From Eledone cirrhosa (Eukaryota), in contig OZ024740.1 in NCBI GenBank assembly GCA_964016885.1, positions 190,960,001-191,024,000 of the forward strand: 64,000 bases of DNA, read 5' to 3'. A program made the translations under genes and the position numbers. The notes below the pieces were generated by a model. It was not told the DNA's origin. It did not search any database and saw only the letters and a program-made list of their open reading frames with translations. Positions 6,080 to 51,958 of this stretch are shown here, piece by piece (the stretch's first letter is position 1; each line of letters begins with the position of its first letter).

Positions 6080-7037
6080 GATATTCATTAGTTAAGCAAA
6101 ACAAGACCACACATTTCACAAGGAAGATATTATTAAAAGTTTGTCAACATATTTGAGTTTGATGTAAGTAATGTAGAGAATAATAATAACAATATTAATA
6201 ATAATAATGTCCGTTTACAATTGTTTCGCTCCTCCATATAATATTTCTGGATCAAATGACTATATATCATTATTGATCTGGTTCAGTTGAAAATAATTAA
6301 CATATTTAAAGACAGAGCGGCTCATCGGAACTTCACAGAAATATAAATTAAAATAAGGAAAGCATGTTACATAATGTAATTTTCCATATATTGGTATTTC
6401 CCTCTGGTGCCCTTGGTGTATCAATTGTCCATTGGCAGCCATATTGTTACACATAGGCAGATCTCACACAATGCAGCCTCGACAGATGAATACTGCTTGA
6501 TTATGGCAGACAATTGATACACCCAGGACACCATAGTGAAATAACAATATATGGAACATTACAATATGTAACATTCTTTCCTTATTTTAATTTATATTCC
6601 TTTGAAGTTCCGTTGAGCCGCTCTGTCTTTAAATATGTTAATTATTTTCAACTGAACCAGATCAGTTATGATATATAGTCTTTCGATCCAGAAATATTAT
6701 ATGGAGTAGCGAAACAATTGTAAACGGACATTATTTTTAATAATATTATTATTATTATTCTCTACATTCCTTACATGAAACTAAAATATGTTGACAATAT
6801 TTTAATAATATCTTCCTTATGAAAGTTGTGGTCTTGTTTTGCTTAACTAATGAATATTTCCAGCTCTGCGCGCTTAACTTCTGCATGAACCCAGCCACCT
6901 AGCTGCTTTCCACTGGATATTGCACATTGAGCACACGCCTTTACGCTTTGGTTTCTATCTAATTCACCAATCTCTCCTCTCCTATCTCCTCTCCTATCTC
7001 CATCTCTCTCTTTAATATTGGTTACTCTTGAACTGTG
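6080..7037. mobile_element. Non-coding fold-back element: arms ~6081-6429 and ~6509-6856, then a tail
   Basis: Diverged inverted arms flanked by TA tracts; possible degenerate HHR (CCGATGAG...GCGAAAC). Confidence 0.8.
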
Positions 7038-8029
7038 TATATATATATATACATATATATAAAATATATATATTTACATATACATAAACTACACAGAGCC
7101 TATATATATGTGTGTTTTTGGCAACAATTCACGGTGTGGCTCAATGACGAATTAATTAATTAAATAATCAACAATCAGAGCAATATAAAAGAATGTACGT
7201 CCATAGAATCATTTCATAAAATATATACAGTATTTCCTCTCCCAATCAACAATAGATAAATTAACGATAGCTATTTTATCCGCGATCAACAGCCACATAA
7301 TATTTACCCAGTATTTCTAATAACCCGTGGAAATCGATTAGATACATAGCCAACCATACACAATTAGGTACCAAATCGAAGTTAGAAGAAAAAATGAATA
7401 TAAGCAAACCAATATATATATATATATATATATATATATATATATATATATGTGTGTGTGTGTGTGTGTGTTTGTGTGTGTGTGTGTGTGTGTGTGTGTA
7501 TGTGTGTGTGTGTGTGTATGTGTGTGTGTGTGTGTGTGTGTGTGTGTGCACGTGTGTACGTGTGTGTATGCGTATATATAGAACAGTGTCTAGAGTTTGA
7601 ATTTTTTATTCTAAAAGAATAATTAATATTTACATTTCAAACATATTTTCTTGTTTTCTTCTGCTTTTTTTAGTTTGCTGTCTCCCCTGTGTTTGTTTTC
7701 CTAATTTTATTATCATTAATTTGTGACGAACATGTTCTCCCTCTCCCTACACTAATTTCAAAGGTTTACACATTTGACGACTTTTTTAAAAAGGTACTTT
7801 AATTCTTTTTGGGATTGTTCCTCCTCTTCTTACTTTACCTCTTCATCATTACTATAAAAAGCAACATACCTTCTCCTAGGCGAATAAAAGTGTCTGTATA
7901 CCTGTTTTGTCTTAAATGGTATAATGTATTGTTACGTCTTGACTTGTACTCCACGCACAGTAGTATGAAATGTTTCAGACGCTGTGACACAGGAGTAGTG
8001 TCGGTAAGCCTTAAAACCGCCAAGGTCCA

Positions 8030-8324
8030 TTATTATTATTAATATTATTATTATTTTTCTCTACATTCCTTACATCAAACTAAAATATGTTGACAATCTT
8101 TTAATAATGTCTTCCTTGTGAAATGTGTGGTCTTGTTTAGCTTAACTAATGAATATTTCCAGCTCTGCGCAACTAACTTCTGCATGAACACAGCCACCTA
8201 GCTGTTTTCTACTGCATATTGCACATTGAGCACATACCTTTACGCTTTTGCTTCTAACTAACTCACCAATCTCTCCTCTTATATCTCCTCTACTATCTCC
8301 ATCTCTCTCTTTAAGATTGGAGAT
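8030..8324 (+). repeat. Second copy of the right end and tail of the 6080-7037 family
   Basis: Aligns by eye with ~6735-7022 and ends at (TA)n. Confidence 0.85.
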
Positions 8325-48929: not shown

Positions 48930-50230
48930 TATATATATATATTTATATATATATATACATTTATAAATATATATATATATATATATATATATATATATAT
49001 ATATATATATATATATATATTATATATATATATATATATATATATATATATATATATATATATATATATATATATATATATATATATATGGGCGTGTATG
49101 TGTGTGTGTGTATCAATATTTTCATTGTATGTATGTGTATGTGTAAATGTGTGTATTGCCTACCACGTGTGTTTGTTTATTTATTTGTGTCCTTTCCTGT
49201 ATCGCTGTCAACTTTATGATACTGTTTATTTTCTTATGTCGTATATTGTTTAGTTTTGTTTGACGGCCTATTGCATTATATGGTTGTTCATTGATTTTAT
49301 TTTTTCTCATAATTAATTGTGTGTGCGTATGTAGGTGTGAGTACTTATATATCTATATGTGTGGGCGTATGTATGCGTGTATATGTGTGTGTATGTATGT
49401 GTGTGTATGTACGTGTGTATATATGTATGATTATGTGTGTATATATATATATGTCTGTGTGTGTGTGTGTGTGTGTGTTTGAGTATTTATGTGTATGTGT
49501 ATGTATGGATATATATATATATATATATATATATATATATATACATATATATATATATATATATATATATATATATATATACATATATATATATATGTAT
49601 ATATGTGTGTATATAAATATACATATATATATATATATATGTGTGTGTGTGTGTATGTATATGTGTGTGTGCAAGTGTATGTGTGTGTGTGTGTACATGT
49701 GTCTTTATCTACTTTTATATTTATTATTTTTCCTCTCCATCCTTTTCCAGCTTCACTTTCATATAGATTATATTATTGTTTTTAAAATCCACTGTCAATA
49801 ATTACACCACGATTTTTTTCAATGTGATGACTGAAAGCAAATGTTGTTTGCTTTCAAGAACCCACCGATAAATGAAATAATTATCTCATGTTGTTTATTA
49901 CATAACTAATAAACTCTGTAACCTACATCGACCAGTCCTTTTTCCTGGACCATTCCGACGGAATTACTTCATTTATCCACACACACACACACACACACAC
50001 AAATATATATATATATATATATACATATACATACATATATATATATATATATATATATATATATATATATATATATATATATATATATATATATACATGT
50101 ATATATAGAACAGAGGAATTGTGGTAAGGAGCCATTTGGACCATAACGCACCAGAGTATTCAATACTTAGGGTAGTAGTCTAAGTGTGAGAAATGAAGTT
50201 TAATTTTTTCTATTTATATATATATATATA

Positions 50231-51958
50231 TATATATATATATATATATAACGAAGGGATTGTGGTAAGGAACCAGATGGACCATAACGCACCAAAGTAC
50301 TTAATACTTAGGGTAGTAGAGTGGGTAATAGGAACAAGTATGTCTCCGACGGCAGAGCTCAAGCCGTTTCCACGGCTATTTCTGGACTAAATAAGAATGT
50401 TTAGCCTGGTAAATAAATAGCCGAACTTCTCAGGGGGAATTTCCGTATTTAGGAAGATAGTAATTGTCGAGAGGATTGGGCAAAAGTTTGTTGTAAATAC
50501 AGATGAATGTATCATGGCATTTGGTGGGAGGTAGGGGTGGCTGAACTTGCCGGTAGAACAAATAGGGAGTGGGGGAAACCCAGTCAAGCGTTGAAAGTAA
50601 AATCTATACAGCAGATTCTAAGGATAGTGTATAAAAGGTAAAAACAGTGTACTGGAGAAGAGGAGAGGGGTTGAAAGAATAGGTATATCGAAATGGAGTA
50701 AAAAAAAAACATTATAAAAATAAGGAAATAATTATATAAAAAATTATTTCTGATTACTAAGCCATTTCCACAATCACCAAACTTCTAATTGGTATTGCTA
50801 TGCTATAGAAAAGTGTAATAGGTGGAGAATGGGAACAATACTAATTACGAGATAGTAGTGAAAGAATTTTATAAAGCCGGCGTTACAGGGGTCTAACACC
50901 TCTGCTATAGATATTTAGTAATCAGCCAATGCTATCTTACAAAGACAGGTTAATAAGATGAAAACAAAAATACTACTACAAAAATACTAATACAAAATAT
51001 TAATACAAAAATATTAATACAAAAATACCACTAAGAAATTTAGAAACCACAGAAATACAGCTGCTACCAGAAAGAAAAAAATATATTGGGGTCTAACACA
51101 TCTGCTATAAAAAGCGTAATCGCCCAATTCTAAATTAAAATTAGGGGGTAGGAGGTACTTATGCTACAGAGGACTGATAGGCTGCATCGGGGTAGTTGAA
51201 AGGTGTAAAAAAGACGAGGAAGGAGCTCTGGGGTGGAAGGACTAGGAAGAGATAGAGGGAAAAAGGAAACGTCTACATTTGTAAGCAGGGGGTTACCCCT
51301 TACAAAATAGGAAAATGGGGGGTATCAGCCCTTGTCTACCACCCAGGGTCATTATGTGATTTGAGGGCGAGGTAAGTCCTACGCAATATGTGTGTGCATG
51401 CGGTTACCAGTTGGTCTTTCTTGTTTTGGAATTGGTCTTTCGAAAACAACATTTGTAATGTTTCCTCCGAGCATACGTTACACGGACGGCGTCCTCCCGT
51501 GTAAGAGTTAGCTTTGGACAGTAAGCTCCAAGTGAGATTGTAGGTTATATTATCTTTGAGGTCCCAGATGTGGCCCGAACGTGTAGTGGCATGTCGCCGG
51601 GCCGGGTTTCGGAAAGTATGTCGGTGTTGGTAGAGCCGGTACTTGATATCACAAGCGGTTAATCCTATATAATCTGCTGTATAGATTTCACTTTTAACGC
51701 TTGACTGGGTTTCCCCCACTCCCTCTTCGTTCTACCGGCGAGTTCAGCCATCCCTACTTCCCAACAAATGCCAAGATACATTTATCTGTCTTTACAACAA
51801 ACTTTTGACCAATCCTCTCGACAATTACTATTTTCCCAAATAAGGAAATTCCCCCTGAGAAGTTCAGCTATTCATTTACCAGGAAAAAACATTCTTATTT
51901 GGTTCAGAAATAGCCGTCGAAACGGCTTGAGCTCTGCCGTCGGGGTCATACCTGTTCC
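50231..51958. mobile_element. Fold-back Naiad-like PLE (GIY-YIG remnant 51336-51670 minus; arms ~50330-50620 and ~51670-51958)
   Basis: YIGLT...RLYQH...HIWDLKD...CNVC...ACTH; HHR-like motif at 51851-51945. Confidence 0.85.

Follow-up and report, generated by a model that had tools for sequence, protein, structure and literature searches.

Penelope-like elements (PLEs) that carry an endonuclease (EN+ PLEs) are described as partial tandems with an inverted, 5'-truncated copy and an optional tail (PMC8557442; PMC3846280), and their one-sided tail, inverted pseudo-long terminal repeats (pLTRs), targeting of (TA)n and two reverse transcriptase (RT) start sites have all been published (PMC8557442; PMC3846280; PMC11167929). 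The origin of the tandem and inverted structures and of the tail has been called an open question (PMC8557442). In vitro, PAc (Poseidon of Anolis) has two RT start sites that bound the tail, and it cleaves as well as extends both strands (PMC11167929); the later steps are left open there, inverted copies go unexplained in the main text, and the available part of the supplementary text holds nothing on tail, inverted or initiation. Here we analyse a 64,000-nt stretch (the window, starting at C1:190960001, where C1 is contig OZ024740.1) of the 3.0-Gb genome of Eledone cirrhosa, in which ten PLE insertions consist of two mirror copies with their 3' ends outward (the arms), one stopping at a short end site (S) and the other at a long end site past the tail (L). 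Although PAc belongs to another clade, it has in common with these insertions two fixed RNA sites bounding the tail and an AT-rich target, and a dimer has been predicted for it (PMC11167929). Compared with published EN+ PLEs, the tails are longer (55-177 nt across the window elements vs. 30-40 nt; PMC8557442; PMC3846280), one-sidedness has been counted and is near-obligate, and either arm may be the longer. An earlier note on this DNA had suggested an undescribed integration rule. The architecture, the tail and the two RT start sites are in fact known, yet the near-obligate coupling of S with L, together with a reading in which two primers use a single RNA, appears to be a new refinement: in the literature searched, outside which older subscription papers lie, we found no statement of coupled S/L pairing or of twin priming for PLEs, and the available parts of PMC9977147, PMC13282606, PMC12910113 and bioRxiv 10.64898/2026.07.22.740005 contain nothing on S/L pairing.

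Self-comparison of the window and per-element alignments confirmed the ten inverted repeats between TA tracts that the earlier note had proposed, each with S on one arm and the tailed L on the other, and related copies do reuse two end points, end positions being bimodal in every family. TA tracts flank the elements as claimed, although a TC-rich stretch precedes the TA at one end of the elements at 14.6 and 50.3 kb. Pairing was counted in 1.49 Mb of the genome, in 207 stretches mostly of C1, for six families (A-F), with pairs taken from the first listed motif places and the retrieved DNA. Among 173 adjacent inverted motif pairs, 151 are S/L, 4 L/L and 2 S/S, the remaining 16 having a degraded, read-through or cut-off end that leaves them unclassable; S/L pairs are thus 151 of 157 classable pairs, where equal S and L frequencies would give 50% (binomial p about 1e-37). 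The earlier note had named S/S and L/L pairs as common as S/L as the outcome that would tell against the rule, and they amount to 6/157. For family A, whose end motif has 46,096 exact genome-wide matches, 19,880 of them run directly into TA (S) and 19,169 into the tail, a class that includes tandem-internal sites; pairing among the first listed places (96 of S, 100 of L) yields 36 S/L, 5 L/L and 0 S/S of 41. Regions of this family were chosen after the listings had been seen, every listed inverted pair being taken, L/L included, whereas families B-F, selected via a motif lying inside both ends, were sampled blind to end type and gave 96/100 S/L (p about 3e-24). Three tandem arrays likewise terminate in S at one end and L at the other, and of the four L/read-through cases, three prove to be tandem arrays that really finish in S on the far side. 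The S/L rule is therefore real and general in this genome.

The exceptions are few. At two of the six, C1:333502136 (L/L) and C1:37408745 (S/S), host DNA past the ends is inverted too, the mirror copy passing the end into the flank, and at C1:37408745 the far side is still closed by an L arm. One L/L pair joins different subfamilies with 1.2 kb of unexplained DNA between them, and both C1:23366417 (L/L) and C1:19309788, which was counted as S/L, are probably unrelated neighbours. Such cases bear on whether the pairs could be two independent insertions into one TA tract, or else artefacts of assembly or of long-read fold-back, an explanation that we regard as highly improbable and that the observations have already largely refuted. 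TA tracts here do attract repeat insertion, and the mixed-subfamily L/L pair over 1.2 kb and the probable false pair at C1:19309788 are of the kind that chance neighbours would produce; as a rule, though, independent insertions would yield S/S, L/L and mixed subfamilies. In a chimera at C1:55904390-55904850, TA on both sides, a family F arm is joined to a family E arm, both L; deletion between two neighbouring insertions could be an alternative origin for it. Among 185 motif-unpaired ends, 30 S have a short inverted L partner, 4 L have a short S partner, 2 are L-L and none is S-S.

Partner arms stem from one source. The A1 or A2 subfamily is the same in both arms of all 51 classable pairs (4 were unclassable), and of 31 variants that occur in two arms and no more, 21 lie in partner arms, where chance would give 1/13-1/87. 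Two different RNAs per insertion, as a rule, were rejected on the same ground, the concordance of partner arms. The 13% divergence between the arms at 10.5 kb is best read as age, the nearest other arms being 8% away. In 32 pairs the TA tract is interrupted on both flanks, and 15 of these share interruptions in direct orientation, as against 3 in inverted orientation; permutation gave a mean of 6.0 and a maximum of 14. Such recurrence on both flanks resembles a target duplication, that is, one event. Artefacts of reading would make the arms identical, but divergence between arms reaches about 13%, and they are never the same at the tail. The near-perfect palindrome at 20.4 kb (99.6%), whose junction is not among the read matches listed, would suit an artefact; on the other hand, when raw Illumina restriction-site-associated DNA sequencing (RAD-seq) reads of two other samples were compared with 22100-24283, several opposite-strand family-A joints appeared in both runs, at about 100-200 reads each. 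The inverted junctions are therefore real DNA at the family level.

Arm lengths carry further information. Arms were mapped on curated natural references; 11 of the 151 S/L pairs could not be resolved and were set aside, and for 13 the arms were filled in manually on the basis of ORF (open reading frame) strand or total length. The 106 resolved pairs of families A-D include 40 in which S is longer by >30 nt, 43 in which L is, and 23 within 30 nt; for differences >300 nt the figures are 22 and 24. The claim that the longer arm carries L in some copies and S in others thus stands, although its example at 38.7 kb fails: the L arm there reaches further 5' but, with a 1.8-kb internal gap, is physically the shorter. 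Asymmetry is already present among 35 young pairs (arms <=1% diverged), with S longer in 10 and by >300 nt in 8, and shows no relation to divergence (rho -0.02, n=93). Lengths of partner arms are nonetheless correlated (rho 0.38 in the 106 pairs), and 19 of the 106 are equal within 20 nt vs. 7.9 by permutation. Of 72 asymmetric junctions, 39 have a 0-6 nt overlap and 29 inserted bases, and junctions vary by copy, with only 2 repeated length pairs in 140, both of family E. Since junctions differ between copies, inverted units were not copied whole, and that candidate was rejected. Equal-length pairs are often centred on self-complementary words. A fixed RNA 5' end for family F was rejected as well, because longer copies pass the hot spot, itself a self-complementary word. 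In family E, palindromes of some 190 bp predominate; both of their arms stop 35-47 nt inside the motif end while the junctions differ, and a hammerhead cut did not fit as the cause of this stop. The family-E motif has 10,554 exact genome matches, and the palindromes resemble miniature inverted-repeat transposable elements (MITEs).

These data bear on the main rival to a two-primer origin, in which a single L-primed cDNA would fold back, copy itself as far as S and join the other target end, the centre then being lost unequally and fast. Long palindromes undergo central, asymmetric deletion in other eukaryotes, and the rival accommodates the shared variants, the correlated arm lengths, the excess of equal arms, the repair-like junctions and the several junctions at self-complementary words. 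Fold-back alone, however, cannot yield a pair whose S arm is long and whose tailed arm is short, and it requires an extra reason for the exact stop at S; visible run-on inversions passed the end into host DNA without stopping. Nor does asymmetry rise with age; even near-equal pairs have S longer as often as L (8 vs. 9 in A-D, 12 vs. 8 in E), tandem arrays in which the S and L arms measure 12.9 and 1.2 kb would have needed a 25-kb fold-back precursor, and loop-free centres would be easier to reconcile with two identical cDNAs that annealed than with a hairpin. Direct priming at both sites by PAc in vitro also speaks against it (PMC11167929). Altogether we consider fold-back unlikely.

Still less likely are two ideas already in print, self-priming on an antisense template giving a head-to-head repeat (PMC3846280) and endonuclease resolution giving the one-sided tail (PMC8557442). 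They explain palindromic junctions, an antisense or DNA template could give the shorter arm a tail, and the endonuclease of PAc cleaves AT-rich sites where its own ORF meets the pLTR (PMC11167929). Yet later in vitro work places the tail ends at RT start sites on sense RNA (PMC11167929), junction positions here are mostly unique, and neither idea gives a reason why S and L serve equally as the long arm.

S/L pairing, fixed ends, either arm longer, shared arm variants and varied, repair-like junctions are what we observe; we think it probable that they arise when a TA tract is cut and reverse transcription starts from both of its 3' ends on a single element RNA, at S from one end and at L from the other. 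The endonuclease would cut (TA)n in a staggered manner, and a complex with two active sites, likely a dimer, would grip the stretch of RNA from S to L, with the register fixed by a short AU-rich match (a few bases) to the TA primer. The L-primed polymerase would displace the S-primed cDNA while copying the same RNA, and each cDNA would terminate prematurely or at a stop common to both. Joining of their free 3' ends, through microhomology of 0-6 nt or with short insertions, and fill-in would complete the insertion. A cDNA that remains very short or is lost would leave either a partner consisting of tail only or a usual copy with a single arm. Independent site choice would make half of the pairs S/S or L/L; the choice is therefore coupled, and the coupling could come from the complex holding one tail segment. 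A two-copy structure prediction of the N-terminus and RT of family B1 (480 aa) had a score of zero and speaks neither for nor against a dimer. At the two sites, read-through copies have AT-type bases. A putative shared stem, ACTC...GAGT, begins a few bases past S in single-sequence folds of the B, C, E, F and H tails (e.g. 29984-30063, 43854-43952); its cross-family alignment is poor, and it is a possible candidate for a protein-binding element. (TC)n between element end and TA occurs at 7/27 family-C S, 4/22 family-F L and 1/42 family-E S ends (e.g. C S ends at C1:84191306, 114276874 and 185954267; window 15174-15206 and 51960-51978) and at none of the ends of families A, B and D; RT slippage at initiation could add the repeats, or priming could take place on compound TC/TA tracts.

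The process has a counterpart outside PLEs. In twin priming of LINE-1, a long interspersed nuclear element (LINE), cDNA synthesis on one RNA starts from both target strands, and microhomology-mediated joining of the cDNAs creates an inversion; the second primer is used at variable internal sites, and the two parts do not overlap. Here the primer sites are fixed, 55-177 nt apart, and both arms copy the same sequence, so that a palindrome results, two-strand priming being in our case what we infer from the products.

Several points weigh against two-primer integration. No intermediate or empty site was observed among our data, and a trailing L-primed polymerase might favour longer S arms, whereas there is no S-longer bias. 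The same arm statistics and shared variants would be expected from fold-back with rapid loss of the centre. The earlier note preferred two priming events, which remain the best explanation, but arm lengths alone would also fit fold-back with asymmetric deletion at the palindrome centre. Shared variants show that both arms go back to a common element or underwent gene conversion, which need not mean a single RNA molecule, and the window's 22.3-kb junction is not among the read matches listed. Of the 185 motif-unpaired ends, 44 directly meet TA (77 are unclassified and 28 not resolvable), and two-arm insertion is therefore not universal; the zero for S-S among them is a weak count, as the strict S-partner pattern missed visible cases. 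PAc, finally, used both start sites on either strand in vitro, with no coupling reported in the text available, and its start site is reported as non-homologous to the target, unlike the AT match here (PMC11167929).

Near-obligate S/L pairing in six families connects the open question of PLE structure with the two RT start sites, and it predicts, for the existing in vitro system, S/L rather than a 1:2:1 mix at paired target ends. Extended further, at least two deep PLE clades would integrate by obligate two-ended priming, one RT dimer offering S and L to opposite ends, a proposal to which we give slightly less than an even chance. If true, two-ended priming would account for inverted pLTRs, one-sided tail and palindromic junctions throughout the PLEs and would generate short (TA)n palindromes in large numbers genome-wide. 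For annotation, short palindromic copies could pass for MITEs, microRNA hairpins or assembly errors.

The elements themselves are EN+ PLEs. RT and GIY-YIG endonuclease lie in one ORF: a natural tandem copy of family A has RT and a C-terminal YIG motif with one frameshift between, intact relatives of 774-803 aa contain both regions, and Pfam RVT_1 (E 0.0025) and GIY-YIG (E 0.0055) matched 2 of 10 ORFs weakly, below cut-off. Partial tandems with pLTRs, the inverted 5'-truncated copy and the tail are present as well; a natural tandem array of family A has 4147-bp units plus an inverted arm, and the 25.3-kb element and a family-C copy are built likewise. In the family-A array the tail corresponds to the first codons of the ORF, as the Penelope tail does (PMC3846280). 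Both arms of A1, A2, B1, B2 and F carry sense-strand cores that resemble a hammerhead (CUGANGA...GAAA), candidates for the pLTR motif of EN+ PLEs; the pattern was not found in C, D, E, G and H. Rfam gave no hammerhead among the best 150 of 174 matches, the matches being only repeat-driven, of microRNA type and below cut-off.

Families B, C, D and E are of Hydra type by motifs and linker. The described clade has a C-terminal endonuclease, a CxCX5C linker, RWK, DKT for DKG and a length generally <3 kb (PMC8557442); translations of the four families share with it the C-terminal GIY-YIG, the CxCX5C linker and (TA)n insertion, with RWR and DKT in B1 and DKT in a family-C copy. The units of B1 (about 3.9 kb) and C (about 4.9 kb) exceed the usual length because of long 3' untranslated regions (3' UTRs). 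The earlier note had called some of these copies Naiad-like, an identity that we reject: Naiad has an N-terminal endonuclease and is without hammerhead, whereas here the endonuclease follows the RT in B, C and D, B has hammerhead-like cores, and Hydra motifs are present. Family A has CX4CxxC ahead of its YIG motif and DKSG in the N-terminal part, which fits the Neptune/Nematis linker CX2-5CxxC; its homologue search returned unclassified proteins only, and the nearest named proteins of the elements are octopod. The N-terminal ORF of A2 carries an asparagine-rich insert (C1:14381654-14395804; window 2518-3591) resembling inserts described in rotifer Penelope elements (PMC3846280). Three A2 tandem units at C1:14381654-14395804 are 99.7-99.8% identical.

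Within the window, S lies on the left and L on the right in the first six elements. The family D (Hydra-type) insertion at 6081..7037 has arms, measured from the end motif, of 349 (S) and 432 nt (L) and a tail at 6861-7037, which measures 177 nt and not the roughly 165 given before. The tail is 55 nt in both Nematis-like copies, as stated in the earlier note: in the A1 insertion at 10472..11744, whose S arm is the longer (781 vs. 437 nt; arm identity 87%) and whose hammerhead-like cores lie at 10622 (-) and 11506 (+), and in the A2 near-perfect palindrome at 20381..24283, whose tail (24229-24283) is the ORF start. In the latter the arms are 99.6% identical (about 1919/1926 nt) and meet at about 22300; a 5'-truncated ORF with RT, CX4CxxC linker and C-terminal GIY-YIG runs from 22301 to 23706 (+), with its mirror copy at 20903-22300 (-). 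Between these lie a family G insertion, related to B (11863..12219, tail 94 nt), a family H insertion (12306..12761, tail about 140 nt) in which no ORF was seen, and a family F near-perfect palindrome (14623..15173). The end of the family H element, formerly set at 12680, is really at about 12761, a point reached by two other copies. The family F palindrome has a tail of 92 nt, followed by (TC)16 and then TA, hammerhead-like cores at 14688 (-) and 14977 (+), and at its centre a self-complementary word that is a junction hot spot.

The remaining elements are mostly longer. In the B1 (Hydra-type) element at 25313..30063 the S arm is a full 3.9-kb unit, started by an internal tail copy (29154-29250), and the L arm has 0.7 kb plus an 80-nt tail; hammerhead-like cores lie at 25373 (-) and 29876 (+), and the ORF, in two frames (26896..29134, -), encodes RWR and DKT motifs, RT, CxCX5C linker and C-terminal GIY-YIG. 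Family C (Hydra-type) occupies 38726..43952, S left and L right, with a tail of 99 nt and a junction at about 41553; its L arm extends into the RT without 1.8 kb of 3' UTR, a gap absent from every other copy compared. An eleventh S/L insertion, a miniature of family B that the earlier note did not list, lies between TA tracts at 44022..44139, with an L arm of about 99 nt and an S arm of about 22 nt. It is followed by B2 (44176..48929), with L on the left (tail 83 nt, long arm, ORF 45938-47266 on the - strand) and S on the right. The family E element, with a Hydra-type endonuclease remnant on the - strand, spans 50251..51959, L again on the left (tail 79 nt, long arm) and S on the right; position 50231, its start in the earlier note, lies in the TA tract.

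Not every PLE copy is inverted: the single-arm family-A copy at 2518-5947 meets TA directly at its 5' end. Together with it, pieces showing no detected mirror arm lie at 8028-8322, 10167-10455, 18205-18909 and 33420-33956, and these five consist of one long L copy of family A, L pieces of families D and B, and two remnants of a Hydra-type endonuclease. Pairs are unusually crowded in the window, which holds all eight motif-detected ones of C1:190860001-191114000 (254 kb); the contiguous 190 kb flanking it contain no further motif-detected pair of the six families. Other repeats are also present. A near-perfect palindrome at 37150-37520 adjoins TA tracts, and an element at 51979-54338, with TA tracts on its flanks, has inverted termini of about 320 bp and an ORF (52781-53656) that resembles a mariner-type transposase remnant. 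Decayed ORFs of non-LTR retrotransposons of other kinds occupy 30871-33444 and 57144-64000, where 62104-63894 is presumably akin to the RT of a site-specific LINE.

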